A stretch of DNA of 64,000 bases from an uncultured Candidatus Binatia bacterium (GCA_965218425.1 OZ244621.1:3552001-3616000), one strand, 5' to 3'; positions 39,781 to 59,539 are shown, numbered from the stretch's first letter. Made by a program: numbers and translations. The notes: generated from the letters alone by a model not told the origin.

Positions 39781-40797
39781 TCATAACGTCACGCCAGGAA
39801 ACTTCACGTCAAGCATTTCCCATCGGTCTCCGCTGTCCTCGCTATGGCAGAGTTCGCCGCTGGTGAGTTCCGCGTAAAGGTGATTGGGATCTGCCCCGTC
39901 AATTACAATCTCCACGGCAAAGCTTTTGCCCATCTCGGACAGGTTGCCGTCTAACTTCTGCCAGCTTTTTCCACCATCTTTGGTCCTCGCGATTACTGAT
40001 TCCGCGCCACTGGGACGATTCCACTGGCGAGGTTGGCCATTGGCCATGGCGGCATAGAGTATATTCGGGTTCTCTGGGTGCATCACCAGCGGCAACGAGT
40101 ATTCCTGGGAGAGATCGGCTCCCATTGGGCTCCATGTCTGGCCTGCGTCGTTGCTCTTGTAAAGGGCCCTTCCCTTGGACTTGCCCTGGCGGCAATCGTG
40201 ACCGCCTGTGGCAATGAAAATGTTGTTGGTATTCGTTGGATCGATGACGATGGTGTGAACATCGGCGTCGATCCCTTTATCCAGCAGTTTCCAGCTTTCA
40301 CCTCCGTCCGTGGATTTCAGCATGTATCCCACTTGAAGGGCTACGTAGATTGTTTTGGTATCCTTTGGGTCCACCGCGACGTCCCTCACATGGGGTTCAA
40401 CCGTCGGTACCGGATAGGTAATGGTTTCCACAAAGGGAACTGCTCTTAAGGCGTCCATTCGGGTCCAGGTCATGGCCGAGTCCCGGCTAACAAATACATC
40501 AATGGGTTCTGTTCCAGCGTAGAGCGTGTTGGGGTCGTGGGGGTCGACGGTGAGGCACCTGACTTTTCCCGGCCCTGGCTTGCCATAGCAGGGCTTTTTC
40601 CAGGATTTTCCGGCGTCGTCGCTGAGCCATACCCCGTCGCCCCTTGTTCCCGCAAAAACCCGGTTAGGCATGCCGGGAACGGAGACCGCCTTCAGGACTG
40701 ACCAATTTTTCAATGCCTGGTTTTCCACCTTCCATGATTGTCCGTTTTGGCTCGTTACAGTTACAACGCCTTCGTCTGTGCCGAAATATAGAGTCAT
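39781..40797 (-). CDS. BNR/Asp-box repeat beta-propeller protein without signal peptide
   Basis: Repeated SxDxGxxW boxes (SDDAGKSW, STDGGESW, SNDAGQTW, TKDGGKSW, SEDSGDRW). Confidence 0.88.
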   Translation of the reverse strand: MTLYFGTDEGVVTVTSQNGQSWKVENQALKNWSVLKAVSVPGMPNRVFAGTRGDGVWLSDDAGKSWKKPCYGKPGPGKVRCLTVDPHDPNTLYAGTEPIDVFVSRDSAMTWTRMDALRAVPFVETITYPVPTVEPHVRDVAVDPKDTKTIYVALQVGYMLKSTDGGESWKLLDKGIDADVHTIVIDPTNTNNIFIATGGHDCRQGKSKGRALYKSNDAGQTWSPMGADLSQEYSLPLVMHPENPNILYAAMANGQPRQWNRPSGAESVIARTKDGGKSWQKLDGNLSEMGKSFAVEIVIDGADPNHLYAELTSGELCHSEDSGDRWEMLDVKFPGVTL

Positions 40798-40973
40798 GCC
40801 ATTGACCTCCTCCAGTTTCCCATTGCGTGATTGCTAGGACGCATAGTATTAAATGCCTTGCTCAGAATCAAGCATGCTTTGTGGAAAATTTGACATGATG
40901 CGGACCCTGTATTAAAAGTGCCCGTGTCAGCTAACGGTTTGGCACAGAATGTATCCGTCCATTGGAGGACTAT

Positions 40974-41513
40974 ATGGCAGATCCGAATGTATTGCACCTG
41001 GCGCACTATACTGTCGTTGTTCGAGACATTCGTGTTGCAGAAGCCTTCTACACTAAAGTCATGGACGCAGACGTGATCCGGCGAAGTTGGAACCCTGATG
41101 AGCCAGACCCGGCGGGTGATAAGAGAGGACGGCGCTTTACCCAGCTCAAGCTCGGTAGCGTGGTCTTCGATGCCTTCGAGGAACCCTTTGGCCCCTGGCC
41201 GGAGCGACGCAATTTGACTCAGCATCCTCACTATGCCTTTGAGGTTAAGTCTCTCAAGGAATCGAGCCTGCGGCTTGACGAGCATAAGATCCCCTATGAG
41301 TGGAATACTTTTCACGGTCCTGGAGTAGGGATCTACTTCGGCGATCCGGATGGGAACCACCTTGAATACATCGAATCCCGAGGACACTCAAAAGAAGGTA
41401 TCAAGGTTGGTGATCCCGATTGGCCACGGCTCCAATACGATTTTGACCCGCAAACCGCCATGGGCACTCTAGTCGACCTGTCAACATCATCCACCGGCGT
41501 TGACGCAAGTTAA
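40974..41513 (+). CDS. VOC (glyoxalase/extradiol dioxygenase) family protein
   Basis: LAHYTVVVRD, PHYAFEV, YFGDPDGNHLE (H/H/E metal set). Confidence 0.88.
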   Translation: MADPNVLHLAHYTVVVRDIRVAEAFYTKVMDADVIRRSWNPDEPDPAGDKRGRRFTQLKLGSVVFDAFEEPFGPWPERRNLTQHPHYAFEVKSLKESSLRLDEHKIPYEWNTFHGPGVGIYFGDPDGNHLEYIESRGHSKEGIKVGDPDWPRLQYDFDPQTAMGTLVDLSTSSTGVDAS

Positions 41514-41528
41514 CCGTGAGGTGACACA

Positions 41529-42443
41529 ATGAAGCTCAGGTGGGTTTCGGACGCGCCGCCCTGGAGTGGTCGAGCCGAGGCGGTGGTTGCCAAAGAGTTA
41601 GGGTTTTTCTCCGAGGCGGGTATAGAAGAAGCCGAAATTCAAATCATTCCAGGCGAACGCAATGCCATGGAGGCGCTGCTGGCCGGTGAGGCGGATCTCC
41701 TCTCGGGTATGGCCCGTAAGGCCATGATTGCCCACTCTCAGGGGTCCCCAGTCCGCATCGTCGCTCTTCCAATCCGTAAACTGAGGGCGGGCCTCGCGGT
41801 GGATCCTGCCATCGGAGACCCGAAAAATCTTACGGGCAAGACTGTCTCCGTAGGAATATTCGGTGCCATGGTTGAGCGTCTCGCCCGTATGTCCCTCCAA
41901 ATCCTCGGTGTCAACCCTGATGAGGTCAACTATATTGATGGAGGAACTGGGACCCTTCGCATGGAGCTGATTCGCAAAGGAGAATGTCAAGCTGCGGTCA
42001 TGATGAACATTAACCTCGTCGCAGCAAAGGCCGCTGGTTTTGATGTTTATGAAACCCTGAGCCAACGTTATTCCACTTATGCGTTCCACTCGTTAAGCAC
42101 AACCCACAAAGTGCTGGTGGAACAACCTGATCTGATCATTGCGGCCCTTGAGGGTTGTCTACGCGGCCATGAGGTGTTGATGGATCTTTCTCGAACCGAC
42201 GAAATCGCTCCTTATTTCACGTCACAAATCTATGGAGGGAGTCGCGAAGATTGGATCAATGAACTGAAAGAGGACATTCAGGCCTTCAATCCGAGCCATG
42301 CGCTCGAAGAAGATGCCTTTGCCAACGCGGTTCGCTTCGAGCAGGAGTTCGGATTGCTCCCGCCAGATTACGACTTTCGGGCGGTTCTAGAGGCCTGGCC
42401 CCTTGAGCGGGCCACGGCCCGGGTTAAGGCCGGGAAAGGCTAG
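41529..42443 (+). CDS. NMT1/THI5/SsuA-like binding-protein-fold protein without signal peptide
   Basis: VAKELGFFSEAGI, ALLAGEAD, LTGKTVSV; no signal peptide. Confidence 0.75.
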   Translation: MKLRWVSDAPPWSGRAEAVVAKELGFFSEAGIEEAEIQIIPGERNAMEALLAGEADLLSGMARKAMIAHSQGSPVRIVALPIRKLRAGLAVDPAIGDPKNLTGKTVSVGIFGAMVERLARMSLQILGVNPDEVNYIDGGTGTLRMELIRKGECQAAVMMNINLVAAKAAGFDVYETLSQRYSTYAFHSLSTTHKVLVEQPDLIIAALEGCLRGHEVLMDLSRTDEIAPYFTSQIYGGSREDWINELKEDIQAFNPSHALEEDAFANAVRFEQEFGLLPPDYDFRAVLEAWPLERATARVKAGKG

Positions 42444-42478: not shown

Positions 42479-43612
42479 CTAGTTTTGTTTTTCCTCGTAT
42501 GACGTGGCATCGGAAGGCAATATTCTGATTCGATCTGGCGGCAACTGTGCGGAAATCTTTGCTCCGGTGTTAAGCGGGCTGCTACCTTCAACCTCTGTTT
42601 GACATCGCTCAGCCCCGATTTGTAACTCGCACTGGGTGCGATTGCCGATAAATATGGTTCGAAGAACTGTTGCGGGAAAGGTATTCGGGAGCTCATGTGA
42701 CGCTCCAGGGAATGAAACGATTTCCTCGGGACGGATGGTGAGCAAAACCTTATCGCCGGCAGAATACTGGCTATTCAAACCAGGCGCCGTGCACTCAACT
42801 TTTCCGAAGCTGCAGGTTACCACTAACGTACCCTTGGGTTGGTCCTTTTCAATAGTTCCCGAAATAAAATTAGTCTGACCGACGAATCCTGCCACGTAGG
42901 CGTTCGTTGGGTTCATGTATATACCTCGTGGCGCCTCCAGTTGCTGTATGATGCCGTTGCGCATGACCGCAATGAGGTCCGAAAGCACCAAGGCCTCTTC
43001 CTGGTCGTGGGTTACGTATAGAGTGGTCACACTGAGATCCTTGATAAGTCCCTGCAACTCGGTTCGCATGCTAACACGGAGCTTGGCGTCCAGGTTGCTG
43101 AGTGGCTCGTCCAAGAGAAGAACCGTTGGTTCGTATACAAGGGCGCGTGCCAGGGCCACCCTTTGCTGCTGGCCGCCACTTAAAAGGGGTGCGGGTCGGT
43201 CTGCCATGGAAGCCATCTGAACCCGTTCCAAGGCCTGCATGGTCCTTGGGCGCCATTCCTTCTTGGGAGCCTTGTTGGGGCCGTGCCTTAAGGGAAAGAC
43301 TACATTTTCAAATACCGACATGTGTGGCCAAATGGCGTAGGACTGGAATACCATACCGGTGCCCCGCTCATTGATAGGGACGTTGATCCCCCTCGGGGAG
43401 CTGAAGACAACATGATCCCCCAACGCGATCTCTCCTTCATTGGGTGTCTCGATACCGGCAATGCAACGCAATGTGGTGCTCTTGCCACATCCAGAAGGAC
43501 CCAGGAGGGTGAAAATCTGGCCTTTTTGCACGTCAAAGCTCACACCACAAACCGCTTCCACCGGTCCTTGATCCGAAATATAAGTTTTTCGTAGACCTTC
43601 AACTTTTAGCAT
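42479..43612 (-). CDS. ABC ATP-binding protein (FbpC/PotA-like, TOBE domain)
   Basis: GPSGCGKS, VFQSYAIWPHM, LSGGQQQR, LLDEP, VTHDQ. Confidence 0.95.
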   Translation of the reverse strand: MLKVEGLRKTYISDQGPVEAVCGVSFDVQKGQIFTLLGPSGCGKSTTLRCIAGIETPNEGEIALGDHVVFSSPRGINVPINERGTGMVFQSYAIWPHMSVFENVVFPLRHGPNKAPKKEWRPRTMQALERVQMASMADRPAPLLSGGQQQRVALARALVYEPTVLLLDEPLSNLDAKLRVSMRTELQGLIKDLSVTTLYVTHDQEEALVLSDLIAVMRNGIIQQLEAPRGIYMNPTNAYVAGFVGQTNFISGTIEKDQPKGTLVVTCSFGKVECTAPGLNSQYSAGDKVLLTIRPEEIVSFPGASHELPNTFPATVLRTIFIGNRTQCELQIGAERCQTEVEGSSPLNTGAKISAQLPPDRIRILPSDATSYEEKQN

Positions 43613-43716
43613 AGGTACCTACCAGCTAGGAATTTTGCATTCCAAAATTATGAATTTGAATTGTCATTTCTCTCGGATCTAAAGTATCAAATAGCTTTGA
43701 TCCTTGCCGGTTTTAC

Positions 43717-45498
43717 TTAAAATCCACCTCGTTGGGTCAGTCGGCCTCCGGTAAACGCTAAGGCGACCAACAGCAACAGTCCCATAACAGACACCATAAC
43801 CACCGCAGCAGCTGAGGCTTCACCCAATTGGCCACTGTCCCATAGTCCCCAGACTGCAACCGATAGCACCATATTGTTGGTTTCAGTCAAAAATAGCGCC
43901 ATACTGACCTCCCGGAAGGTTAGCAGGGCCGTCCATAGACTTGCAAATACCAGGGAAGGTCTAACCAATGGCATAATAATGCTCCACAGGGTGGGAATAT
44001 TCCCAGCGCCACACACTCGGGCGGATTCCTCCAGCTCTGGAGTAACCTGCAAAAGGGAGGCGTTCGTAATTCGGGTCGTGTACGACAATCGATTAAGCAA
44101 GTTAGCCAATACGATTATGCCCACGGTTCCGCTAATAGGAATTGACGGGAACCAAACAGAGGCCAGGATCCCTAGCATGAATAAAGCAAATGCAAAGGCA
44201 AGACCAGGAAAGGCGTGGGGAAGCATGGCAATGGTATCCATGGTATTGCGGACTCGAAGACGGGTTCGTACAACAATCCAGGAAATCATTAAGCTGAAAA
44301 ATATGGCTAGGGCCGAAACGCTGAACAACAGCACCACGGTATTGCGCATCACGTCTTGCCCGCCAATAAACTCCATGAAGCTTCGGTAGTTCTCGAGGCT
44401 TAACTTCGATAGGGCTTTCACAGACGGCATTTGAATGATGGGCAAAAACGAAATCCAGAGCAGGACCAGCATGGGCAAGACCACTGCCAAAAGTAGGTAG
44501 AGAAGAATAAAACCCACGCCCAGATATTTAAATGGCCCTAATTCGATATCTCGGGGCCTGTAACCCTTCCCGGTAATGACCCCGTAGCGATGGGCCTTCG
44601 CCAGTACCTGATGATAGAAATACAATGCCACAAGACTCGGGGCGGCAATCATTGTGGCATAGACGCCTGCAGCGCCGTATTTGACATCCAATGAATCCGG
44701 CGTCGTGGGCCGCACTGCATAGAAAAGTTCACTGGACAGCACCGGCGCCTTTCCACCCGCGGCTCCAAGCATGGCGGGGACCTCAAATATAGAAATGGCC
44801 GTCATGAAGACGTAAATGGCCCCCCCGAGAATCCCAGGCCACATCAACGGGAGGCTGATTTTGACAAAGGTCCACCAGCGATTTGCTCCCGAAACACCGG
44901 CCACATCTTCCAAGGCTGGGTCAAGGGCCCGCATGGGACCAGAGATGAGAAAAAACATGGTCGGGGTCAGAATCAACCCCATGACCCAGGCGATACCATA
45001 AGGGTTATTTAGGTTAAGCGCCAAACTATCGATTCCAAGGAGGCCAGCCACGGCATTGTTGATGAGACCAATCCGCTCATTGACCAGCATGATCCAGCCC
45101 ATGGTTTTGACAAACCCGGGGATAATTACCACTACGGCGATCAACGTAATGAAGAGATTTCGAAATGGAATTGCGGTTCGATTGAGTAAGAACGCCAATG
45201 GACAGGCAAAGAATAGAGCAACCAGTGTAGCCCCGGACCCAACAATGATTGTATTGGGAATCACCTCAGTCAGGACATAAGGCCGGAATGCATTGGTCCA
45301 GTGGCTTAGTGTCAATCCTGGCTCGAAGGGGAGGCCAGGAACAAAGGTCATGTAAAAAACAAAGACCACCAGTGCCACAATGGCTGAAAGGACGATCCAA
45401 GACAGTGTCAGCGGCAGAGCATATGGGCCTAGCGTCGGGGTGAGGCGTTTCCTCGCGTGCTCGAGCCCTGTCCCTCTAGCGGTCTCTACACCCTCCAT
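43717..45498 (-). CDS. ABC permease (FbpB-like)
   Basis: Two EAA loops (LEDVAGVSGA, LEESARVCGA). Confidence 0.92.
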   Translation of the reverse strand: MEGVETARGTGLEHARKRLTPTLGPYALPLTLSWIVLSAIVALVVFVFYMTFVPGLPFEPGLTLSHWTNAFRPYVLTEVIPNTIIVGSGATLVALFFACPLAFLLNRTAIPFRNLFITLIAVVVIIPGFVKTMGWIMLVNERIGLINNAVAGLLGIDSLALNLNNPYGIAWVMGLILTPTMFFLISGPMRALDPALEDVAGVSGANRWWTFVKISLPLMWPGILGGAIYVFMTAISIFEVPAMLGAAGGKAPVLSSELFYAVRPTTPDSLDVKYGAAGVYATMIAAPSLVALYFYHQVLAKAHRYGVITGKGYRPRDIELGPFKYLGVGFILLYLLLAVVLPMLVLLWISFLPIIQMPSVKALSKLSLENYRSFMEFIGGQDVMRNTVVLLFSVSALAIFFSLMISWIVVRTRLRVRNTMDTIAMLPHAFPGLAFAFALFMLGILASVWFPSIPISGTVGIIVLANLLNRLSYTTRITNASLLQVTPELEESARVCGAGNIPTLWSIIMPLVRPSLVFASLWTALLTFREVSMALFLTETNNMVLSVAVWGLWDSGQLGEASAAAVVMVSVMGLLLLVALAFTGGRLTQRGGF

Positions 45499-45534
45499 GG
45501 ATTTTCTTCAATGCGGACTGCTAGTCCTTTGTGT

Positions 45535-46083
45535 TCACGCCCTGTCATTCAAAAGCTGGCCGTTGTGAACTAATTTACCGGTGACGGGAATGGGGTTCTT
45601 GATGGTGTTTATGGTATGACATCCCTGCTCGATCCTGGCTAGCAATTGTTTAACCTTTTCCGCAGGGGCCGGGCTCCTAATATCAAACGTGTACATTACA
45701 CCCCGGCACGCCGGCGAGACATCCGCGATGCCCAGTTTCCCCCGGGTGTCGTAACTCATCCGTATATCCATCTTCGCATCGTCGATCTGAACATCCAGTT
45801 CTGACGCGTACCGCGTCAGTTGGCTGAACATTCAAAATCCCGTTGCAGCGACAAAGTACTGGAGGGGCGAGGGCGCCTTACCTCCTCCTCTCCTGGACTT
45901 CGCTTCGTCGCAGAGGATCGTATACTCTCCAACTCTCGCCTCCTTGAGTTGGTCTTCAACCAGACGAATCGCGGCCCGAGTCTGGATGGTATGACCTTCT
46001 GCGCCCGTCCTTGCCCGTTTTCGTTGCTCCTCAGTGGCATCTCGAAATTTGACCAGATCGATCTTTCCGGCCGGCTTACTCAT
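45535..46083 (-). CDS. OsmC/Ohr family peroxidase, predicted selenoprotein (Sec at TGA 45834-45832; 182 aa)
   Basis: ORFs 45832-46083 and 45535-45831 abut in frame; DEAKSRRGGGKAPSPLQYFVAATGF-[TGA]-MFSQL puts TGA at the first catalytic Cys; second Cys in IEQGCHT; SECIS-like hairpin follows. Confidence 0.88.
45794..45828 (-). promoter_or_regulatory. Bacterial SECIS-like stem-loop
   Basis: mRNA UGA-aug-uucag-ccaa-CUGACGCG-gua-CGCGUCAG-aa-cugga; perfect 8-bp stem, G-initiated loop 20 nt after UGA. Confidence 0.75.
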
Positions 46084-46100
46084 GATAAATGCCCTCCGCG

Positions 46101-47240
46101 CTAGCGGCGTTGCCTTATTTTCTTAGTAATGTCTCTCCTGTATGCCTTTCCTTCGTCCGTGCCGAACCATTTCAAGACTTCGAGGGACTCTGGACTGTCA
46201 TAAAAGGAAAGAAGTTTTGATCCGCTCTCCTTTAAGGTCTTCCTGGCCATTTTGTCATAATCACTTTGGCCCCAGTGAACATTGGTGTAGAAAGAGGGAG
46301 GTTGCCAAATCGCCTCTGCCTCTGGGGTTCCCATCCACATGCTAAAGAGAGTCCCCACCGCAGAATGACGAGCGCCCTTGGGAACAATGTAGAAGATCTG
46401 CGTTGTACCGGTGCCGTCCGCATACCAACGGTATCCTATTGGAGCCTCCGAATCCTTAGCCTTGGCGGAAAGATAGTGGTAGAAGTTCCCCGGGAAAAAT
46501 GCAAATTCTCCAAGGAGCAACCGGTTTTTTGCTTGCGTTGTGTGCATGACCCCGGCCGAATTCTTGCCGATCGTATCCACCGTCTTTAGCCATTTGTCTC
46601 TTTCGTAGACAAGGGTTCCTAACTCCCACTCGCTGGTAAAGATTCCCAATGCGTATTGTCCTTTATATTTTGGATTGGCCATATCGGCCCGACTCTTGGG
46701 CAGGTCTTTTTCGGAGATCAGTTTCGGGTTATAGATCATGACCTTATTTCGACCCGCAAAAGAAAAGGCATACCCAGTAAAAGGTGATGGACTCACCTCC
46801 TCTGGTTTCACCTTGCCAGAACGGACTAGAGGGTTGATCTCTGCAAGCAGAAGCTTCCAGTTGGCTATCTTCTGGGCATTTCCGGCATGCATCAATTCGA
46901 CAACATTATCGCCAGCGCCTGGGTATGTATCGTAGGGAGGTTTTCCGCCCGCCCTTAATGTAGCAAACAGCTGTGCGTAGGCTTTGGTTTGGCCTCCTTT
47001 CGCGATGTTGCTCTTGAGGTTATTGAGGCCGAACCGTTTTTTGAATGCCTTCATAAGTTTTGGGGTTACCCTGCCGGCCTGTCGGACCACCTGCGTGGTC
47101 AGGACGCCTTCTTTTTTCGCCTGAGCAATCAGCTCATCCAGGACCCTTTTGCCTTCGGTACTGGCAGCTACTGGCTGGGCCAGAGCAATGGTAATAACCA
47201 AACACAAAAAGACGCCAATACTTTTACCTAAGCTTTTCAT
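46101..47240 (-). CDS. ABC substrate-binding protein
   Basis: Signal peptide (IALAQPVAA), LIAQAKKEG, YNPKLI, PKYKGQ, VPKGARH. Confidence 0.85.
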   Translation of the reverse strand: MKSLGKSIGVFLCLVITIALAQPVAASTEGKRVLDELIAQAKKEGVLTTQVVRQAGRVTPKLMKAFKKRFGLNNLKSNIAKGGQTKAYAQLFATLRAGGKPPYDTYPGAGDNVVELMHAGNAQKIANWKLLLAEINPLVRSGKVKPEEVSPSPFTGYAFSFAGRNKVMIYNPKLISEKDLPKSRADMANPKYKGQYALGIFTSEWELGTLVYERDKWLKTVDTIGKNSAGVMHTTQAKNRLLLGEFAFFPGNFYHYLSAKAKDSEAPIGYRWYADGTGTTQIFYIVPKGARHSAVGTLFSMWMGTPEAEAIWQPPSFYTNVHWGQSDYDKMARKTLKESGSKLLSFYDSPESLEVLKWFGTDEGKAYRRDITKKIRQRR

Positions 47241-47482: not shown

Positions 47483-48253
47483 GTGAAGGAGTACGACCAA
47501 TTGTGCAACGATCTGCGGTTTGGAACCCGACTTCTGTTTCGCGACTTGGGGGATCCTTGGGGACATATTGCTGTCCGTTTACCGGACGGCGACAAGCGAA
47601 GTGGGTTCATACTCAAGCATGTGCGGGTTCCTCCACCGCCGGCCGACCCTAACGCTGTCATGATCTTCGACTACGATGGCGACTGCCTCGAAGGGGCGCG
47701 GACCCGCCCCTGGGAGATTCCAATTTATACTGCCATATTCAAGGCGCGCCCCGACGTCCAGAGCGTTATCCATACCCACCCTCACATCGCTACGGCCCTC
47801 ACCATGGCTGGTAAGACGGTTTTTGCGATTACCCATCAATCCGCTCAATTCGAACATGGCGTGCCGGTTTTTCCTGGGGACATGATCAACAGCAACGAAT
47901 TGGGCGAGGGCCTGGCGCAAACCCTTGGAAGCTTTCCCGCCGCGTTACTGAAAGGACATGGTGCCGTCTCTATTGGTACTACCATCGGACAAGCGGTTCA
48001 GAACACCCTCTACCTCGAGCAGGCTGCCCGCCAACAGATTCTCGCGGCGACCCTCGGCACACCAGAGGTGCTTGAGGAACGATTCATCGAATTTCATAGA
48101 AGGCCACCTGCAGGAGAGGGAGGTTTGGCCCTTTGGTACACCAAAATGCACTACGAGCAGACGGAGGTGAGGCCCATGGTAAATCGGTCCACGGCCAGTA
48201 AAGAAACCGCTAAGAGGAAGACCGCACCGGGTCCAAGGAGGAGGCGTAGGTAA
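47483..48253 (+). CDS. Class II aldolase/adducin family metalloenzyme
   Basis: WGHIAVR, EIPIY, RPDVQSVIHTHP, LLKGHG. Confidence 0.9.
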   Translation: MKEYDQLCNDLRFGTRLLFRDLGDPWGHIAVRLPDGDKRSGFILKHVRVPPPPADPNAVMIFDYDGDCLEGARTRPWEIPIYTAIFKARPDVQSVIHTHPHIATALTMAGKTVFAITHQSAQFEHGVPVFPGDMINSNELGEGLAQTLGSFPAALLKGHGAVSIGTTIGQAVQNTLYLEQAARQQILAATLGTPEVLEERFIEFHRRPPAGEGGLALWYTKMHYEQTEVRPMVNRSTASKETAKRKTAPGPRRRRR

Positions 48254-49560: not shown

Positions 49561-50256
49561 ATGATCACTAGAGATCTAAAATCCGGTGAGGCTTTAATTG
49601 GAGAATTGGAGGGATATCGGAGGGAGCATCGAAAAGAGTTTCCCTTTCGGAACGAGATTGGAAAGACAAAGGAGAAGATTATCGAGTCGAAACGTGCCAA
49701 GCATGCTGGAGGTTCGGATAATCATAAATTCGAGGGGGAAAGGTATCTCAACTGCACCGCCAAAACCATCCGCCGCCGGCAGCTGCGCAAACTGGTGGAT
49801 GAAGGCGGGTTGAGCACCTTTGGGGGGAAGGTTCCGAGCCATGCCATGTTGGATCGCATTGGATCCTACGAATTTGGGATAACCGATGACGAGATTACTG
49901 AACTAGAAAAAGGCGATCCATCGGCGGAGAAGCTCATTGTCAGGGGCTGGTGGGTCCATCTCAACCGGACCCAGCACTGGTCCATTGCCATAGGGAGTGG
50001 CATGGTTGTGGAGGGCGAAAAGAAAGTGGACCCCGAGAAAGAGGCCGAGGAGATTCAAACCATGAGGGAAGACTATGCGGAGATGGGTATTAAAAATTTG
50101 GACAATGCGCTCTGGTTCGCCTCGGAGCATGCGGAGGTGGACATAGATCATACTGAATTCAATGAGGCGGTCATCAAGCAATTTGTTAATACACCTGAAT
50201 TGCAAAATGAATTGAGAAAGGCATTCATCCTGCGTCTACAAAACCAGGGGTTTTGA
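49561..50256 (+). CDS. Heme-oxygenase-like (PqqC/CADD/TenA fold) putative diiron protein HDO-1
   Basis: RRRQLRKLVDEGG...PSH...VEGE...EHAEVDIDH (E,H,E,H,D,H). Confidence 0.7.
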   Translation: MITRDLKSGEALIGELEGYRREHRKEFPFRNEIGKTKEKIIESKRAKHAGGSDNHKFEGERYLNCTAKTIRRRQLRKLVDEGGLSTFGGKVPSHAMLDRIGSYEFGITDDEITELEKGDPSAEKLIVRGWWVHLNRTQHWSIAIGSGMVVEGEKKVDPEKEAEEIQTMREDYAEMGIKNLDNALWFASEHAEVDIDHTEFNEAVIKQFVNTPELQNELRKAFILRLQNQGF

Positions 50257-50282: not shown

Positions 50283-51062
50283 ATGTCAGAGTTGCCCTAT
50301 GGACCAGAAGACCTGAAGGAACCGGCGCTGAGTGCAGAGGCCTTTATTCGGTTCCTCCAAGACGAAAAAGCGAAGAAATACCCGGAGCTGCCTCCTTTGT
50401 TTCAAAACCTCCATGAGGGTAAATACAGCAAAGAGCATTTGAAGCTGTGGGTGAAGGATATGTACCTGTATTGGGATTATGCCCTGGTTTACAGTACCGG
50501 CGCTATTTATGTGAAGACCAATGACGAAGAGGTGAGAACCCAAATACTTAGAAAGCTGGTGGATATCGAAGGAAAAGAAGTGGTCAAGGATCTAACCGGC
50601 TGGACCACGCCGGCTTACGAAGAGCTTTGGCTCCGCTTTGGTGAAGGGCTCGGAATCTCCAGGGAAGAGATTCAGTCTTGGAAATCATTCACTCGGAGCC
50701 ATTACGCCATGACAACCCTCTGCATGCTTTCCCGATGGTGGGAGTGGACTTGGTTAGACGGCGTGGCGAGTTTGTATGCTGGAGACCTCCACGGAAGGGA
50801 TTCCCTAGGTGGAGTGAGAGAGGCCATGAAAAAGCACTATGATGTTGCGGGCAATAGCTTGGAAATTTTTCGAGTCCTTGAGGAGGACGCGGCATCCCAT
50901 ATCCCTTGGGAGGAACAGGCGCTTGCCCATTGGTGCTGCACCCGGGAGAGGCAATTGACGGCGGCCAGAGCGTTTCGAAAGCGACTGGATATTGAAAATC
51001 AGCTGCTTGTGGCACCCCATCGGGCGGCCACCTCGGAACGGATGCCTCTTCAAATCCCCTAG
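50283..51062 (+). CDS. PqqC/CADD/TenA-fold protein HDO-2 with degenerate metal site
   Basis: LHEGKYSKEHLKLWVKD, RKLVDIEG, ELWLRFGEGLGISREE, WLDGVASLYAGD. Confidence 0.75.
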   Translation: MSELPYGPEDLKEPALSAEAFIRFLQDEKAKKYPELPPLFQNLHEGKYSKEHLKLWVKDMYLYWDYALVYSTGAIYVKTNDEEVRTQILRKLVDIEGKEVVKDLTGWTTPAYEELWLRFGEGLGISREEIQSWKSFTRSHYAMTTLCMLSRWWEWTWLDGVASLYAGDLHGRDSLGGVREAMKKHYDVAGNSLEIFRVLEEDAASHIPWEEQALAHWCCTRERQLTAARAFRKRLDIENQLLVAPHRAATSERMPLQIP

Positions 51063-51104: not shown

Positions 51105-51812
51105 ATGGACACGGAAACTCTTCGGGAGAATCTGATCCGGTGCATTCGTATGATGGACATGATCGCCCTTGTGGAGCACAACGGTCATGTGAGCGTACGA
51201 ATCCCCGGGACGGACCGGGTTCTCATCCAATCGCGTTACTCCAGTCGTGCGACACTGACATCGAAGGATATTGTCACCGTGGATCTCCGGGGAAACCTAC
51301 TGGAAGGCGAAGACGAGCCACCCAGCGAGACACCCATCCATACTTGTATCTATCGGGCGCGGAAAGACATTGGATCGGTGGCCCATCTCCACTGCCACTA
51401 TGCGGTATTGCTCAGTATGAGCGGTGTGGCCTTTGCCCCGGTATGCAACGATGGAATTCTCTTTGCCCGTGATGGCGTGCCACTTTTTCCCCATTCGTGG
51501 AACATAGGTAGCAATAAACGCGGTGAGGCCTTGGCTGAAACCTTGGGAGGCGCCAAAGCAGCGCTCATGAAAGGTCATGGAGCCGTGGTGGTATCGGAGG
51601 TCCTGGAAGGCCTGTTTCAGACTGCCTATCAACTTGAACAGAACGCGCGCTATCAGTACGAGCTCATGTTACTGGGAAAGTTACAACCCTTCACGGAAGG
51701 GGACGTTCGAAGTGCCCCGAAGCAAACCCTAGGGGCTTTGGAGGGCAAACGAAAGTGGAAAGTATGGGATTATTTTGTTTCCGTAGCCGAAAAGAGAGGC
51801 GTGTTTGATTGA
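51105..51812 (+). CDS. Class II aldolase/adducin family metalloenzyme
   Basis: NGHVSVRIPG, PPSETPIHTCIYRAR, VAHLH, LMKGHG. Confidence 0.92.
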   Translation: MDTETLRENLIRCIRMMDMIALVEHNGHVSVRIPGTDRVLIQSRYSSRATLTSKDIVTVDLRGNLLEGEDEPPSETPIHTCIYRARKDIGSVAHLHCHYAVLLSMSGVAFAPVCNDGILFARDGVPLFPHSWNIGSNKRGEALAETLGGAKAALMKGHGAVVVSEVLEGLFQTAYQLEQNARYQYELMLLGKLQPFTEGDVRSAPKQTLGALEGKRKWKVWDYFVSVAEKRGVFD

Positions 51813-51839: not shown

Positions 51840-52541
51840 ATGTCTCATCCGCTGGTACCTGGTGACGAGTTTTTAGAAGAATTGGAAGGGTTGCGCAGAA
51901 ATCATCTCAAAGGTGGACTCTTGCGGCCGCGTGCCCACCATAGGACCAAAGAGGAGGTTGCGGAGTCAAGACGAAGATATCATCGAGGAGGGGACAACAA
52001 CCACCGTTTCGAGGGCGAGAGATACTTAAACTGTACGGATAAGGCTATTCGGCGCAAGCAACTCCGTAAACTGATCGACGAAGGGGGACAAACCACGGTG
52101 GGTGGGAAGACACCCAGCCATCCCACACTCGCCCGGTGGGAATCGGAGGAGTTTGGGTTAACCGATGAGGAAATCACCCGGTTGGAAAAGGAGGATTGCG
52201 GCCCCGAAAAGCTCATTGTGTGGGGCTGGCGCGTTAACATGCATCGCACCAGCGATTGGTCCGTAGCCATCGGAAGCTCCCTGGTGGGCGAGGGGGAAAA
52301 GAGGATTCCCGAGATCAGACAACATCTCCTGGACAATGTTAAGATATTGAGAAAAGAGTACGCAGAGATGGGTATCAAAGACGTGGAGCGGGCCCTGGCC
52401 TTTAAAATTGAACACGCCGACGTGGACGTGGACCACGCAGAGCTAGGAGCGGACGTGGTGAGAAGATACGTGAATACCCCCGAACTTCAGGACGAGATGC
52501 GTAAAGCTTTCTCGTTGACGCTCCATATGCACGGATACTGA
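51840..52541 (+). CDS. Heme-oxygenase-like putative diiron protein HDO-3, paralog of HDO-1
   Basis: NHRFEGERYLNCT, RKLIDEGG...PSH...GEGE...EHADVDVDH. Confidence 0.7.
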   Translation: MSHPLVPGDEFLEELEGLRRNHLKGGLLRPRAHHRTKEEVAESRRRYHRGGDNNHRFEGERYLNCTDKAIRRKQLRKLIDEGGQTTVGGKTPSHPTLARWESEEFGLTDEEITRLEKEDCGPEKLIVWGWRVNMHRTSDWSVAIGSSLVGEGEKRIPEIRQHLLDNVKILRKEYAEMGIKDVERALAFKIEHADVDVDHAELGADVVRRYVNTPELQDEMRKAFSLTLHMHGY

Positions 52542-52555
52542 TCTCTTCGATTCAT

Positions 52556-52695: not shown

Positions 52696-54492
52696 TTAGC
52701 GTGGAGCCCGTAAGCGGCCACCCGTAAGCGGCAACGAAAGTAAAAGAATCACCCCCACGGTTACCACCATAATGACCGCCCCCGCCGATGCGGCGCCGAT
52801 ATTGCCGGCGTCCCAGGCATGCCAGACTCCCACCGCCAACACCTGATTCCTGGGACCCGAAAGAAATAGGGCCACACTGACTTCCCGAAAGGTCGACATG
52901 GCCGTCCAGATTGCGGCGAAGATCAGGGACGGCCTAATTAGCGGAACAAGGATGTACCAAATGGTACTGGTGGTAGTGGCCCCACATACGTGAGCGGACT
53001 CTTCCAGCTCCTGTTGCACCTGAATGAACGCGGCATTGGTGATACGAGTGGAATAGGTGATCCGTTCCATAAGAAGAGCGATGGCAATAATCGCAATGGT
53101 TCCGTTTAAGTAGAACCATGGCAACGATCGTTCCAGGAGAAGGGCCACGATAAAAAGGGCGAAGGCAAAGGCCAAACCCGGTATGGCGTGGGGCAGCATG
53201 GCGATATTGTCCATGAGGTGACGAGAGCGTACGCGGGTGCGCACCACTACCCACGAGATGGTTACGCTGAAGAATAAGACGAGAATCGGTACGATTACGA
53301 TTAGTTTCACCGTGTTCCAAACGACGTGGGATCCCCCAATGATGGCCATGAAGTATTCCGGATCGTAGTTGTTCAAGCTGGCTTTGGATAGGGCAGCAAT
53401 AGACGGCATGTGGACGTAGGGGAATAGGGACATCCAGCCCAGCACCGTCATTGGCATAATGGCTGCGAGCATGATGTAAAGGATGACAAATCCTAAAGCG
53501 GGATACTTGAACTTTCTGAGACCATGGGCGTGGGGCCGGTAACCCTTTCCTGAAATTACGGCAAATCGATGAGACTTTTCCAATACCCGGTGGTAAAAGT
53601 ACAGCGCCACCAGAGACGGCCCGGCGATGACCACCCCGTACACACCGGCTGCACCGTAGCTCACCAGGGTTGCCTCACCCGTAGCCGGACGGACCGCATA
53701 AAATAGTTCAGTGGCCAGAACGGGCGATTGGCCTCCCGCCGCACCCAGCATGGCCGGGACCTCGAACATGGATAGGGCGGTCATGAAATGGTAAATCGAT
53801 CCCCCCAGAACGGCGGGCCAGACCAGAGGTAGACCGACCCTTGCAAAAGTCCACCACCGATTCGCCCCGGATACAGCGGCCGCCTCTTCCAGGGAGGGAT
53901 CCATGGAGCGCATGGGACCAGACAAAAGGAAAAACATCGAAGGCGTCAGGGACAAGCCCATGACCCATGCCATCCCATAAGGGTTTGCCAGGCTAAGGGG
54001 AATGGACTCCAAACCCAATAGGCCCGCCAGGGAGTTATTGATGAGACCGATCCGTGGGTTGATCAGGAGGATCCAACCCATTGCTTTCACAAATCCCGGG
54101 ATGAGCACCACTACGGCTAGAAGGGATGTAAAAAAATCTCGAAAGGGTACATCCGTGCGGTTAAGCAACCAGGACAATGGTCCGGCGAAAACCAGAGATA
54201 CCAAGACCGTGCCGATTCCGACAATTAATGTGTTGGGGAGTACCTTGTTGAAAACATAGGGCCGAGCCAAATTTGTCCAGTGCTCTAGGGTGAGGCCGGG
54301 CTCGGTGGGAAGGAAAGGAACAAAGCTCATGTACAGGGTGACAAGGGAGAGAGAGACAATGCCACCCAGCAAAATCCAAGATACAAAAACCGGCATGGTT
54401 TGAGATCCAACCATGCCGCCAAACACTTGCCAATAGGGAAGGGCTCGGCCGGCACCTCCCCCCTTCGTAACAGTTGTTTGCGTATCTGCCAC
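52696..54492 (-). CDS. ABC permease (FbpB-like), paralog of 43717-45498
   Basis: EPGLTLEHWTN, FEVPAMLGAAGG, two EAA loops. Confidence 0.92.
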   Translation of the reverse strand: MADTQTTVTKGGGAGRALPYWQVFGGMVGSQTMPVFVSWILLGGIVSLSLVTLYMSFVPFLPTEPGLTLEHWTNLARPYVFNKVLPNTLIVGIGTVLVSLVFAGPLSWLLNRTDVPFRDFFTSLLAVVVLIPGFVKAMGWILLINPRIGLINNSLAGLLGLESIPLSLANPYGMAWVMGLSLTPSMFFLLSGPMRSMDPSLEEAAAVSGANRWWTFARVGLPLVWPAVLGGSIYHFMTALSMFEVPAMLGAAGGQSPVLATELFYAVRPATGEATLVSYGAAGVYGVVIAGPSLVALYFYHRVLEKSHRFAVISGKGYRPHAHGLRKFKYPALGFVILYIMLAAIMPMTVLGWMSLFPYVHMPSIAALSKASLNNYDPEYFMAIIGGSHVVWNTVKLIVIVPILVLFFSVTISWVVVRTRVRSRHLMDNIAMLPHAIPGLAFAFALFIVALLLERSLPWFYLNGTIAIIAIALLMERITYSTRITNAAFIQVQQELEESAHVCGATTTSTIWYILVPLIRPSLIFAAIWTAMSTFREVSVALFLSGPRNQVLAVGVWHAWDAGNIGAASAGAVIMVVTVGVILLLSLPLTGGRLRAPR

Positions 54493-54533
54493 TACTTTGG
54501 ATCTGTTTCTTTGCGCGGTAAATGCGGGCTCAG

Positions 54534-55675
54534 CTAGCGTCTCTGGGTCACGGCCGCTTTGATCTTGGAACGATATTTTCTCCCCTCGTCAGTGGCCCAC
54601 CATTTTAAGGTCGCCACCGTCTCAGGTGATTGTAGATAGGATACCAATCTGCTTCCGCTCTTTTTGATAGCGGCCTTAGAACGGTTGTCGATGTCGCTCT
54701 GTCCGAAAATCAGGTTCTCCTGTGGGCTTGCAGCCTGTAGAATCGTTTGCGCCTCAGGGGTGGTCATCCACAGAGACCAAAGCGTTGCGCCAGCGGGATG
54801 CCTTGAGCCTCTGGGAAGCAGATACATCATAGGTGAAAGGGGTGTGTAATCGGAGAACCAATGGAGGCCAACGGGGGCCTTAGGGTCACGCGTTTTCACT
54901 CCCCAATACTCGGCGCTGTTCATATAGGTGTAGCATATTCTTTCAACAGGATGCGGTTAAGGGCAGGTTGAAAACGCATGACTGCGGCAGCGTTTTTTCC
55001 GATACGATCCATGGTCTTGAGCCATTTGGATTTGTCTTTGTAAACTAAAATCCCCTGTTCGAAGATATCGGTCCACGGGGCGACGGTAAACTTGCCTTTG
55101 AACTTGGGGTCAGCAAGATCGATAATGCGCCTGGGGATGGTCTTCACGGAAGCAAGCTCCTTGTGGTAAACCATTACTTTGGTACGGGATCCCCAGATAA
55201 ACGCTTGACCCCCAACTACGGAAGGGCTCACTTGGTGGGCTTTAACTGTCCCTGAGGCCACCATGGGATTCACGGCGGCAAGCAGTGGCTTCCAGTTTTT
55301 TACCGGTGTCGCATAGCCTTTTTCCACCGTCACAATAGCGTCGTTGGCACTGCCGGTTAGGGAGTGAAACTGTGGTCTCCCGCCGGCTCTAAGGGTAATC
55401 AACATCTTGGCGAATTTGCCTGCCTGGTCACCCAATGCCACATTGATTTTGAGGTTTAGGCCGAATCTTTTGTTGAAGGCCTTCACAAGCTTGGGAACCC
55501 CGGGTCCCAACTGGGTGACGGTAGCCGTGTCGAGGGTGCCTTCCTTTTTTGCTTTCTCGATCAGGTCATTTAAGAGTTTTTTTCCTTCGGAATTGGCGGA
55601 CGCATGGATAATTCCAAATGATATAAAGGCAACTGTCGATACCGCGACCATGATAAGCTTCCCTGGGGCGTTCAT
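54534..55675 (-). pseudogene. ABC substrate-binding protein, paralog of 46101-47240, frameshifted near 54930
   Basis: NRILLKEYA|(YTY)MNSAEYW aligns with paralog NRLLLGEFAFFPGNFYHYL if one base is restored. Confidence 0.82.
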
Positions 55676-55734: not shown

Positions 55735-56778
55735 CTAGGCATGGACACATTTCATATCGGTTACCGACGGGGCTTTAACATCAAACTTCATCCATGACTG
55801 ACCGTCGTCTTTGCTTCCATACAGCTCTCCGCCTCGAGTGCCGGCATATAGGACCTTTGGATCGGTTTCGTCGAAGGCAATGGCCTCGGGAAACCCTTGT
55901 GTTGCGGCGGCGAGGCCACCCTCAAGTTTTTGCCAATGGGTCCCGCCATCATCTGTCTTAACAATGAGCGACTCTGCGCCGGTATCTCTTTTTCGCCACT
56001 GGTTGGGTTGACCGTGGGCCAGCGCAGAAAAAATGACCTTGGGATTGTTGGGATGCATGACCAGGGGAACCGAATATTCCTGGGAGAACTCCATGCCGGT
56101 AGGGGTCCATTGTTCCCCACCGTCATTGCTCATGTAGAGGGCCTTGCCCTTGGTTTTACCTAGACGGCAATCGTGGCCTCCAGTGGCGATGAAGATGTTC
56201 TTAGGATTGCTGGGATTGATGACGATGGTGTGTACATCGCAATCCAGCTCCCTGTCCAGCAGTTTCCAACTGGCCCCGCCGTCCGTGGTCTTTAGAATAT
56301 AACCCACCTGAAGGGCGGCATAGATGGTTTTGGAGTCCTGGGGATCCACGACAATCTCCCTTACATGAGGCTCCACCGTTGCCACGGGGTAGGGAACCGT
56401 TGCTACAAATGGAATATCCCAAACCGAGTCGAATCGAGTCCAGCTCTTGGTGCCATCCCGACTGACAAAGATGTCGATGGGTTCGGTGCCAGCGTATACC
56501 GTGTTGGAATCATGGGGATCTAAGGCAACGGACCGAACCTTGCCCGGGCCGCGCTTGCCGTAGCAAAGCTTTTTCCAGCTCTCGCCAAAATTCTCACTAA
56601 ACCACACTCCGTCGCCACGGGTGCCGGCAAAGATCCGGTTGGGTGAAGCGGTATCCACCGCAACCTTGGGCACTTCCCACTCCTTCAGGCCGTGGTGCGC
56701 TACGTTCCAAGACTTGCCGTCGTCACTCTTTAGAGTCATGAGGCCTTTCTCTGTACCCAAGTAAAGTATTGAAGCCAT
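55735..56778 (-). CDS. BNR/Asp-box beta-propeller protein without signal peptide, paralog of 39781-40797
   Basis: Asp boxes; shared FAGTRGDGVW, GTEPID, EPHVR, DVH, TGGHDCR. Confidence 0.88.
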   Translation of the reverse strand: MASILYLGTEKGLMTLKSDDGKSWNVAHHGLKEWEVPKVAVDTASPNRIFAGTRGDGVWFSENFGESWKKLCYGKRGPGKVRSVALDPHDSNTVYAGTEPIDIFVSRDGTKSWTRFDSVWDIPFVATVPYPVATVEPHVREIVVDPQDSKTIYAALQVGYILKTTDGGASWKLLDRELDCDVHTIVINPSNPKNIFIATGGHDCRLGKTKGKALYMSNDGGEQWTPTGMEFSQEYSVPLVMHPNNPKVIFSALAHGQPNQWRKRDTGAESLIVKTDDGGTHWQKLEGGLAAATQGFPEAIAFDETDPKVLYAGTRGGELYGSKDDGQSWMKFDVKAPSVTDMKCVHA

Positions 56779-56962: not shown

Positions 56963-57772
56963 ATGGAAAAAACAGTTCTTACCATGTCGTCGGACCTTCA
57001 GCTGGAAGAGGGAGTGCCGGGCCTGCCGGCTGATGAGTTCATCGCCGGCATTTGGCTGGAGCGCAGGCGATACGTAAGGGAAGGCCGGATCAAGCAGCCA
57101 CATCCTTGGAGTGTTGCTTTAGCCGAGGGTAAAGTGTCCAGAGAAGCCGTCATCGCCTACGTGAAAAACCGCCATTACTTTTTGGCCAATATCAATCGCA
57201 AGGACGCCCAGATCATCGCCAACTGTCCGGTGTCGGAGGCCAGGCGACAATTGATGCGGAAATACATCGATGAGGAGGGCCAGGATATCGTAGGAGGACA
57301 ATTGGGTCCCCATTACGAGATGTGGGTCAAAGTGGCGGAGGGGTTTGGCGTCTCCAGGGATGAGCTGAACAGTTTCAAAGATGTTTTGCCGGCCTACCGT
57401 TACACGGTGGACGCCGTCTTTAACTTTGCCAAGCACCATGGTTGGCTGGAAGGACTGGCCGCCACTTATGCTACGGAAGGGCAAATGTGGAGGCGTTATA
57501 CTCCAAAAGATGAGCACAAGGATACAAAGCTTCTGGGCGAGGGTGAGGCGCTGAAGAAATACTACGGCCTCCTGGACGGGGCGCTGGAGTTTTTCAATGT
57601 GCACAGTGACGCCAACGACGAGCACGGCGACATCTGTGAGAATATCATCAAAAAATACTGTACGACCCAGGAACTCCAGCGGAAAGCTCTAGCGGCAGCC
57701 CGGTTCAGGTGGGACAATCACGAGACGCGGCAGGATATTGTCTATCACTATTTCGTTTCAGATCGAAGCTAG
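56963..57772 (+). CDS. PqqC/CADD-like protein HDO-4
   Basis: HPW...NRHYFLANINRKDAQIIANCP...RR...IDEEG...PHYEMW...ATEG...FFNVHSDANDEH. Confidence 0.82.
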   Translation: MEKTVLTMSSDLQLEEGVPGLPADEFIAGIWLERRRYVREGRIKQPHPWSVALAEGKVSREAVIAYVKNRHYFLANINRKDAQIIANCPVSEARRQLMRKYIDEEGQDIVGGQLGPHYEMWVKVAEGFGVSRDELNSFKDVLPAYRYTVDAVFNFAKHHGWLEGLAATYATEGQMWRRYTPKDEHKDTKLLGEGEALKKYYGLLDGALEFFNVHSDANDEHGDICENIIKKYCTTQELQRKALAAARFRWDNHETRQDIVYHYFVSDRS

Positions 57773-57951
57773 AGGTATTGCTTCCCGTCTTGGTTGATCG
57801 CCGTCTCCCACCGAATTTGCGACTGACTCAAAAATGGCGGTGATCAACTCAACCCATCTGTGAACTTTGCCTGAAGGAGCGCACAGCATCAACTTGACAA
57901 GGTATTGGCGTAAAGCTATGAGGTATGAAAAGTCTATGGGGTCAATCCGGC

Positions 57952-58754
57952 ATGGCAACCCTTACAGAACTGAGAGATAGGGTCCGGGAAATGTACAAAG
58001 GGACTAAAACACCCTGGGCCTACCCTAGATTCCCGCAGCCACCGGAAGACTTTTTGCCCCCGGAAAAATTTCTTGAGGTGGTATCCGAAGCGGTCCTGTT
58101 TCATCACACCAAAATCAACCATCCGTTTTGTGTCAGGCTAGTGCGTGGAGAGTGGTCCAAGAGCCAGCTTCAGGCATGGGCCATTCAAGATTACCATGCG
58201 AAGGTCCAGACCCTTAGGAACGACGCCTACATCGTGGCGACGGCGTCTAATTTGGAAGAATTGCAAGAACAGCTCAAGGTGTTGATTTCTAAGTCGGGCG
58301 AGGATCTAGCGGGGGGAAGTACCCCAGCCACCCCGAACTCTGGCTGAGGTTTGCCGAGGCGCTAGGGCTTAGGCGGGAGGACGTGACAAAGTCTGAGCTC
58401 ACACCGTTGATGCAGGTGGTGCTGGACGCCAAGCGCTTTCGGTCCATGAAACAAAACGTGGGTGATCTTCCTGCGAATTTGAGGGTAGGGGAAAAGATCA
58501 ACTCTCTTGTGCACCCCATCTGGGCCGAAGCTTTTGTGGAGAAATACAAGATTGACACCAGTGCCCTGGATTTTTTCACCGCCCATGGAGAAGCGGACCA
58601 GGACCATGGGAAGCTAGGCGAGCAGATCGTTTTAAGTCGGGCGGTTACCAAAGAGGCCCAACGGGCCATCTGGCTGCATCTGAAGACGAGCCAGGGAAAG
58701 CAGTGGGTGACTTACGATGCCTTCTACCAGTCTGCTCTGCAGGCAGGTGAGTGA
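57952..58754 (+). pseudogene. PqqC/CADD-like protein HDO-5, frameshifted at G6 run 58311-58316
   Basis: INHPFCVRLVRGEWSKSQLQAWA in frame 1; one restored base gives GGKYPSHPELWLRFAEALG...FFTAHGEADQDH. Confidence 0.82.
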
Positions 58755-58795
58755 GTCTAGACTCGACTCCATGGTAAGAGGGGAGTTAGAATTAC

Positions 58796-59539
58796 ATGGC
58801 CGCAACCAAAAAGACCAGTGAAACCAGTTTGAAACAACGCCTGGTGGACGGGTTGAAGGTGTTGACGGGGGAGGGCGTTTTGACAGGCTCGGGCCACCTG
58901 AGCGTGCGAATTCCCGGCACAGAGAATTTTTTAATTAACCCGAGATTCCCCGGTGTTCTGGCCACTCCCAAGGACATCTGCACGGTGAACGCGGATGGAA
59001 AACGAATTGCTGGCAAGGGTCCTATCCCTTCGGAGACTCCGATCCACAGTTGCATTTACCGCGCACGGCCGGACGTAAAGAGTGTGCTACACTGCCATCC
59101 TCGTTACTCGATCCTCTTGGGGCTGCAGGAAAAAGGATTGATCCCCTTTAATCGTGAGGCGCGGATGTTTGCGGACGGAGTGCCGGTTTTTCCCAATAGC
59201 ATTGGGATCAACACCGACGGGTTGGCCAATGTGATGGTACAGGCCCTCGGTACTCACTACGCGCTTTTTCTACGTGCCCACGGTGTCGTCGTAGTGGGTC
59301 CGGGCATCGAAGGGACCTGCGTCTCGGCGATCCAACTGGAGCGTGCTTGCCAAGACCAGATATTGCTCATGAGCTTTACGAATCCGGTCCCCATGGCGGA
59401 TAAAGAACGGGGAAGGGTCGAGGCGCGGCTGGAGAATCCGTATAGGGCTTGGCCCTATCTCCTGTACAAGCACAAGGTGAAGTCCCCTGCACGGGTTCGT
59501 GCTTCCATAAAGACGCTCAAAGAGGGCGAGCACTATTAA
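58796..59539 (+). CDS. Class II aldolase/adducin family metalloenzyme
   Basis: SGHLSVRIPG, PSETPIHSCIYRARPD, VLHCHP, LRAHG. Confidence 0.92.
   Translation: MAATKKTSETSLKQRLVDGLKVLTGEGVLTGSGHLSVRIPGTENFLINPRFPGVLATPKDICTVNADGKRIAGKGPIPSETPIHSCIYRARPDVKSVLHCHPRYSILLGLQEKGLIPFNREARMFADGVPVFPNSIGINTDGLANVMVQALGTHYALFLRAHGVVVVGPGIEGTCVSAIQLERACQDQILLMSFTNPVPMADKERGRVEARLENPYRAWPYLLYKHKVKSPARVRASIKTLKEGEHY

Follow-up and report, generated by a model that had tools for sequence, protein, structure and literature searches.

According to a 2026 review (PMC13108848), heme oxygenase-like diiron oxidases (HDOs) activate O2 at a dimetal site of three histidines and three carboxylates (3H/3C), and the roughly one dozen validated members are biosynthetic and need no protein effector. 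The nearest solved folds to the proteins studied here are those of CADD/CT610 and NePabS (PDB 1RCW, 8VA9, 8VAG, 9PJ4), i.e., 4-aminobenzoate synthases with the same heme oxygenase (HO) bundle, and of PqqC (PDB 1OTW, 3HLX), a cofactor-free pyrroloquinoline quinone (PQQ) synthase in which the HO fold is metal-free. We analyzed a window of 64,000 nucleotides from an uncultured Candidatus Binatia bacterium (GCA_965218425.1 OZ244621.1:3552001-3616000), in which a cluster at positions 39,781 to 59,539 contains five HO-fold genes (HDO1 to HDO5). Two of the families represented there, A (HDO1 and HDO3) and B (HDO2), constitute an undescribed two-gene unit that is strictly co-inherited. Taken as a whole, the explanation we prefer, in which A and B would form a heterodimer that activates O2 in A and oxidizes an imported carboxylated acid, appears evenly poised with a slight lean in its favor.

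Family A has the 3H/3C ligand set in common with CADD, and the template modeling (TM) scores against the CADD-type structures are 0.62-0.72 for HDO3 and 0.72-0.89 for HDO2; however, the CADD model (TIGR04305) yields 25-75 bits against a cut-off of 200, and CADD, encoded by one gene, is a homodimer whose own tyrosine is sacrificed, whereas A and B are two paired paralogs located among catabolic genes. PqqC, the best fold match of HDO2, is likewise metal-free, but its model (TIGR02111) gives at most 103 bits against a cut-off of 240; H154 and R179 of PqqC are not kept in B, and the position of Y175 is occupied by Phe or Ile (these active-site positions were taken from PDB titles). UndA, BesC, SznF, HrmI, AetD and FlcD/FlcE resemble A in fold and ligand motif, and the O2 chemistry of known HDOs on carboxylic and amino acids serves as a model for A; all of these enzymes are biosynthetic, in contrast to the catabolic role proposed for A/B. 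FlcD retains three ligands and one Fe, whereas B retains none of the E-H-H set of FlcD. A catalytic dimetal chain accompanied by a ligand-less paralog is found in catabolic oxygenases, i.e., in PaaA/PaaC and in the alpha and beta chains of soluble methane monooxygenase, which are ferritin-like. These systems differ from the A/B pair in fold and also encode a reductase, which the pair does not. Our literature search, which left most subscription journals outside its reach, returned no heterodimeric HDO and no report of such genes in Binatia or SAR202; the main texts of the SAR202 pangenome paper (PMC6946804) and of the Binatota paper (PMC8262859) contain no mention of heme oxygenase or diiron proteins, and their supplements may list domains.

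Families A and B and their co-inheritance

The genes HDO1 (49561..50256), HDO2 (50283..51062) and HDO3 (51840..52541), all on the plus strand, are separated, together with the class II aldolase-fold gene ald1 between HDO2 and HDO3, by only 26, 42 and 27 bases, so that HDO1-HDO2-ald1-HDO3 looks like one operon. HDO1 and HDO3 are 53% identical, belong to different clades of the family A tree, and both carry the full 3H/3C motif; A is the likely catalytic subunit. The AlphaFold2 model of HDO3 (mean predicted local distance difference test, pLDDT, 92.1) was matched by Foldseek to PqqC, CADD and UndA with E-values of 1e-5 to 9e-4. The six ligands are E88, H101, E158, H199, D203 and H206 (numbered from the ATG at 51819), and this E/H/E/H/D/H set is kept in 119-120 of 120 homologs. 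Judging by this motif, family A very probably activates O2: the A chain would bind Fe (or Fe/Mn) and form a peroxo-dimetal oxidant, as in other 3H/3C HDOs. The family A profile matched no HO-fold protein among PDB sequences, and a protein atlas look-up returned only unnamed HO-fold clusters. The nearest named relatives of HDO3 are in two Candidatus Binatia loci (L027, 92% identity; L028, 83%). Separately, almost every one of 60 related genomes contains a single copy of a CADD-like HO-fold protein with about 35% identity to HDO3, in changing neighborhoods (L005-L020, e.g., L006:1423-2244); the genome of the window has no match to it at the same threshold.

Family B has the same fold without the site. 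The HDO2 model (pLDDT 92.5) matches PqqC with an E-value of 2.7e-10 and CADD with 6e-8 (Foldseek). With the register set by profile alignment to family A, the ligand positions of HDO2 read I95, Y112, D168, L199, A203 and H206, so that only D168 and the variable H206 remain; because four of the six ligands are absent, HDO2 cannot be a diiron HDO. Across 120 homologs of family B, the same positions are I/V/L, Y/W, D, Y/F/L, V/I/A and H/D. In spite of this loss, B is the more conserved of the two chains: the mean identity is 55% compared to 49% for A, and 51 columns are conserved at 95% or more, compared to 37. The conserved residues of B include seven near-invariant Trp, six near-invariant Arg and invariant Asp, a degree of conservation that counts against B as a mere scaffold.

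The database label PqqC on both A and B chains is wrong. PQQ synthesis was considered and rejected: TIGR02111 stays below its cut-off, and in this 97% complete genome (4.46 Mb, a single contig) we detected no match to TIGR02108 (PqqB), while the best score for TIGR02109 (PqqE) was 58.5 bits against a cut-off of 381.

The alignment of family A was used to fetch 79 genome loci, which represent 58 assemblies counted by record name and come from Binatia, SAR202-type Chloroflexota and Acidimicrobiia, and 77 loci from metagenomes. Of the 79 genome loci, 63 have A and B next to each other; B follows A in 60 and precedes it in three, lies elsewhere in the locus in four, and is missing from the stretch in 12. 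Counted by assembly, B is present in 57 of the 58 with A. Among the metagenome loci, there are 38 adjacent pairs, two with B elsewhere, and 37 with no B, 27 of which have a flank of less than 1 kb. Presence and absence of the two families also coincide: A and B occur in the identical 2 of 201 genomes in a sample of the window's own class, and in the identical 6 of 301 genomes in the Chloroflexota class of G235, where the copy numbers (1, 2, 3, 1, 1 and 2) are the same for both and 9 of 10 copies are adjacent. It should be noted that in both samples 8-13 candidates were scored per genome, and that related genomes are not independent. The adjacent pairs are scattered across the A tree, with 33 pairs at 90% non-redundancy.

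The earlier note on this DNA, made by a model from the sequence alone, described five HO-fold genes and proposed a multi-subunit or multi-step HDO set. All five genes are in place, as seen from Pfam (TENA_THI-4/Haem_oxygenas_2) and, for HDO3 and HDO2, from the Foldseek matches to PqqC and CADD, which bear out the HO-like fold. The dimetal motif is intact in HDO1 and HDO3; it is incomplete in HDO2 with its four missing ligands, and HDO5 is a pseudogene. The motif R-x3-(L/M)RK(L/Y)(V/I)D, said to be shared by four of the genes, is indeed carried by HDO1-4 and missing from the other 32 of the 36 HO-fold open reading frames (ORFs) of the genome. By contrast, the N-terminal helix L-x-x-(E/D)-x-(F/L), said to be common to all, is present as a strict motif in only three of the five genes and is not special, since 12 of the 36 ORFs have it. 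The 36 ORFs correspond to 35 genes, HDO5 being split over two of them.

The predicted A-B complex

The multimer prediction suggested by the earlier note came out positive: the model of HDO3 (residues 8-240) with HDO2 scored 0.63, compared to 0.00 for the best of three controls. Of 157 solved complexes, 116 reach the mark that this model passes, as do 2 of 215 mismatched pairs. At least 96% of contacts are common to the runs, and the pLDDT of the partner is at least 92. In the predicted interface, residues 58-103 of A pack against 70-111 of B, spanning the R-x3-LRKL-x-D helix, and R79 of A is set opposite E96 of B. Among 24 non-redundant pairs (less than 80% identity), A has R79 in 24 of 24 and an acid at the other position in one, whereas B has E96 in 24 of 24 and a base at the other position in none; in PqqC and HDO4, the Arg and the acid are both within one chain. 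The split of this charge pair between A and B favors a true heterodimer, although it is suggestive only because not every other HO-fold paralog in the genome retains the two residues. We consider a physical A-B complex likely. The multi-subunit HDO set envisaged earlier finds support for A with B, but not for all five HDOs as one unit.

In the arrangement we propose, B would dock through the R-x3-LRKL-x-D helix as an obligate metal-free subunit and would shape or supply the substrate pocket, or provide a Trp/Tyr electron path; one B could serve both A paralogs, HDO1 and HDO3.

A different explanation of the same pairing is that A and B act as distinct enzymes in a common pathway: A would be a homodimeric dimetal oxidase, and B would work without a cofactor, in the manner of PqqC or TenA, as an oxidase or hydrolase on the product of A. 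Several observations weigh against the heterodimer, and a number of them speak for this alternative. The score of the complex was compared only with controls of non-HO fold. According to PMC11363339, HDOs and PqqC-like proteins are homodimers; since the interface uses the same face of both chains, the pass may reflect likeness to solved homodimers. PqqC is the best fold match of B (TM 0.82-0.84), and the higher conservation of B, which has a distinct invariant Arg/Asp/Trp set, would suit an independent enzyme equally well. The two families are apart in some genomes (G236 has eight A and four B copies), three B copies have no A inside the fetched stretches, B was not found in one 1.7 Mb assembly that has A, and strict co-occurrence would fit consecutive steps too. 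No A-B fusion is present among 64 representatives. Beyond the proteins themselves, the conserved pair includes neither a reductase nor a ferredoxin, and the neighboring genes are a weak substrate clue, as they vary by clade and the hosts are rich in catabolic paralogs. On the other side, the absence from B of the PqqC residues noted above, the charge pair split across A and B, and the passing complex model argue against two separate enzymes, which we regard as unlikely, if the most serious of the competing explanations.

Two apparent fusions were examined and rejected: P0373 is a frameshifted gene call that continues from A into B, and P0400 is a tandem of other HO-fold domains. As a side observation, the genome contains three further adjacent HO-fold pairs (G000:C1:174652-176399, 4285315-4286956 and 3047841-3049433), with one member of each (175623, 4286174 and 3047841, respectively) lacking H-x3-D-x2-H. 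As these ligand-poor pairs have no BLAST relation to A or B, metal-free partners may have had more than one origin.

Putative catabolic role of the pair

The reaction we envisage begins with activation of O2 at the two-metal site of A. The A-B heterodimer would then oxidize an imported carboxylated aromatic, heteroaromatic or ring-opened acid, and the product would pass to an adjacent enzyme of the host that breaks a C-C bond or removes CO2. That enzyme would be a class II aldolase-fold decarboxylase in Binatia and, in Chloroflexota, an amidohydrolase, UbiD, an isocitrate-lyase-type enzyme, or enzymes of the CitE/MaoC/PrpD/TcuA type. The MDR-family NAD(P)H oxidoreductase encoded divergently from HDO1 (48298..49356, minus strand) and retained in close relatives is a candidate electron source, in Binatia only.

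The neighborhoods of the pair make a catabolic role rather likely. Over 156 loci, amidohydrolase 2 recurs in 50 and Rieske oxygenases in 37, and further recurrent neighbors are LigB, UbiD, isocitrate-lyase-type enzymes, and a CoA-transferase/CitE/MaoC/PrpD/TcuA set. Amidohydrolase 2 is directly upstream of A in 29 of 159 copies, but only in 8 of 89 after redundancy removal. Among binding proteins and neighbors, only TcuA passes its specific cut-off. The window itself provides Rieske oxygenases, UbiD, amidohydrolases, cupins and hydantoinase genes at 10-39 kb. A catabolic setting, as had been assumed for the cluster, is supported. One Chloroflexota clade (L044, L055, L066, L076, L093, L099 and relatives) has A-B within a cluster for a CoA transferase, acyl-CoA dehydrogenase, CitE, MaoC, PrpD and TcuA. 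This TcuA-type cluster resembles those for tricarballylate or itaconate breakdown and is the best substrate lead.

Changing neighbors would also be expected if the pair, like CADD or PqqC, synthesized a small metabolite or cofactor common to several catabolic pathways. Neighbors do vary between clades, the nearest solved folds are both biosynthetic, and the many invariant Trp/Tyr of B are reminiscent of the hole-hopping chain of the CADD mechanism (PMC13108848). Against this stand the patchy, multi-copy distribution (2/201 and 6/301 genomes, with up to eight A copies), the absence of the PQQ pathway together with CADD and PqqC model scores far under cut-off, and a scan of 34 representatives of the recurring neighbors, in which no gene of folate or radical-SAM type turned up. 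We consider such a biosynthetic role improbable.

A more elaborate version of the heterodimer can be proposed, in which the oxidant is generated by A, while B, metal-free and better conserved, binds the substrate and passes the oxidizing equivalent on through its invariant Trp/Tyr residues, and one B serves interchangeable A paralogs, the whole being used by SAR202-type bacteria and Binatia on hard-to-degrade carboxylated matter. The combination is a speculative, rather doubtful proposal.

The surrounding cluster in Binatia

The remainder of the cluster consists of genes whose links to A/B are mostly local. The three class II aldolase-fold genes, the two BNR propellers and the opposite-strand ABC importer genes seen earlier are all present. 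The aldolase-fold genes, on the plus strand, are ald0 (47483..48253), ald1 (51105..51812; likely of decarboxylase type and located 3' of B in Binatia only) and ald2 (58796..59539; accompanying HDO4/HDO5 in Binatia). Class II aldolase-fold decarboxylases (Mlr6791, PDB 2Z7B; PhtC, NF053537; NovR) are among the best matches of all three proteins, all below cut-off: the NF053537 scores are 70.7, 86.9 and 87.8 bits against 200, and sugar-phosphate aldolase models score similarly. The H-x-H plus third His site and G-H-x-S-x-R are complete in ald1 and ald2, and ald0 has H-x-H and GHIAVR. We take G-H-x-S-x-R, which Mlr6791 also has, to be a sign of decarboxylases, an assumption based in part on the Mlr6791 alignment.

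Propeller 1 (39781..40797) and propeller 2 (55735..56778, divergent from HDO4) are on the minus strand. The suggestion that they are cytoplasmic agrees with the lack of a hydrophobic, signal-like N-terminus in either: the best 11-residue N-terminal hydrophobicity means are 1.15 and 0.69, compared to 3.2 and 2.6 in two binding proteins. The importers are also on the minus strand. ABC importer 1 (42479..47240) comprises a binding protein (46101-47240), a permease (43717-45498) and an ATPase (42479-43612), with the gene of an OsmC-related protein inside the operon; ABC importer 2 (52696..55675) comprises a permease (52696-54492) and binding protein 2 (54534-55675), and binding protein 3 is at 59543..60313. 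A promoter scan was at chance level (11 found compared to 8.3 expected).

HDO4 (56963..57772, plus strand) belongs to a separate PqqC-like HDO family, with PqqC as its best sequence match. It has five of the six ligands, the six positions being E104, H117, E172, H214, N218 and H221; Asn218 replaces Asp in 119 of 120 homologs, next to an invariant Asp219. An Asn ligand variant is predicted in about 4% of HDO groups, according to PMC11363339. HDO4 was found in 10 of 41 relatives, with a divergent propeller beside it in six of the ten.

HDO5 (57952..58754, plus strand) has a frameshift in a G run at 58311-58316, and Lys replaces the first metal-ligand Glu (58291-58293). Intact orthologs that are 77-80% identical and keep this Glu are present in three further genomes of Binatia (G011, G031 and G035). 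Contigs of runs X1-X4 match positions 53500-60500 gap-free, and short pieces of X6 and X7 cross the G run unchanged; five samples from three studies agree, one run of which may be the source of the window. An error of long-read sequencing or assembly was therefore rejected, as contigs from six runs cross this position with no insertion or deletion, and HDO5 is a real pseudogene. In addition, binding protein 2 lacks one base near 54930 compared to the G001 copy and is frameshifted there, and binding protein 3 is C-terminally truncated, ending about 100 residues early. With HDO5 and two importer binding proteins broken, this population shows decay in the right half of the cluster.

The OsmC-related selenoprotein (45535..46083, minus strand) was correctly recognized: with the in-frame TGA (45832-45834) read as selenocysteine, it passes NF041052 with 149.5 bits against a cut-off of 95, a hairpin follows the TGA (z -3.6), the TGA is retained in L106 and L107, and SelA and tRNA-Sec are encoded in the genome. 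It does not differ from the known NF041052 OsmC-related (seleno)protein family. Present in 2 of the 218 loci covered, it is an optional passenger and not a constant neighbor, and nothing connects it to peroxide from these enzymes, which it had been supposed to handle. There are five matches to the OsmC-related family in the genome (G000:C1:1339419, 3597559, 4139948, 4131050 and 1399475), four of them with an in-frame TGA.

The earlier note combined all these genes, i.e., five HDOs, three aldolases, two propellers, the importers and the selenoprotein, into one conserved uptake-and-oxidation pathway. Some conservation of order supports this: between propeller 1 and HDO4 most of the arrangement persists, with ald0-MDR-HDO1-HDO2-ald1-HDO3-importer-propeller-HDO4 mostly retained in G001, G002, L106, L107 and L108; the links of propeller to HDO4 and of HDO5 to aldolase are seen again in a different Binatia family; and a propeller with the same importer type lies beside A-B in some SAR202-type loci (L054, L057, L065). 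The distribution of the genes argues otherwise. An aldolase is present in only 4 of the 79 genome loci of A (one of the four from Chloroflexota) and a propeller in 11, which makes the large module local to Binatia. The neighborhood check for HDO, aldolase and BNR together gave 2 of 57 loci of at least 15 kb, both from Binatia. The ranges of A/B and HDO4 differ, an amidohydrolase-like ORF takes the place of HDO1 in G002, HDO5 is absent at this place in G001 and G002, the HDO5-ald2 part is intact in only 3 of 40 relatives, and three cluster genes are broken. Nor is the module repeated within the genome: none of the 30 HO-fold genes outside the cluster has an aldolase within 3 kb, and a propeller is near two of them compared to about 0.7 expected. 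A single conserved pathway of this size has little probability; instead, there are two units, the widespread A/B pair and a Binatia unit of propeller, HDO4, HDO5 and ald2, the latter partly decayed here. Overall, the observation was partly confirmed and its first interpretation partly supported.

Because the HO-fold, aldolase and propeller families are all expanded in this genome (35 HO-fold genes, 13 class II aldolases, 17 BNR ORFs), co-location needs testing against that background. A further explanation is that B is a duplicate in decay and that the cluster brings together by chance members of expanded families, several of them broken. For A/B this is refuted, as B is intact, more conserved than A, and present in three bacterial groups, and we give the explanation as such almost no credence; a chance pile-up may account for OsmC and ald0.

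Other genes of the window deserve mention. Two NMT1/THI5-fold proteins without a signal-like N-terminus (38848-39756 and 41529-42443) may be cytoplasmic enzymes with a binding-protein fold. A hydantoinase/oxoprolinase A gene followed by two B subunits (33203-38805; best match caprolactamase, below cut-off) also adjoins the cluster in G001 and L109. The region 10081-33172 is catabolic, all on one strand, and encodes three cupins, an SDR, two amidohydrolases, UbiD, four Rieske/LigXa-type oxygenases, two mu-crystallin proteins and two binding proteins.

Thus, the A/B pair is the part of the cluster worth testing, whereas the surrounding module is Binatia-local and partly decaying. SAR202-type Chloroflexota and Binatia are thought to oxidize stubborn organic matter, and the pair, two genes of about 500 residues in total, is found in uncultured members of both groups, from soil and ocean. 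Being small and strictly co-inherited in these bacteria, it is a direct target for co-expression, structure determination and substrate screening. If our explanation is true, a two-subunit HDO with a metal-free twin would be a new architecture, and would bring a likely catabolic role, for the superfamily.

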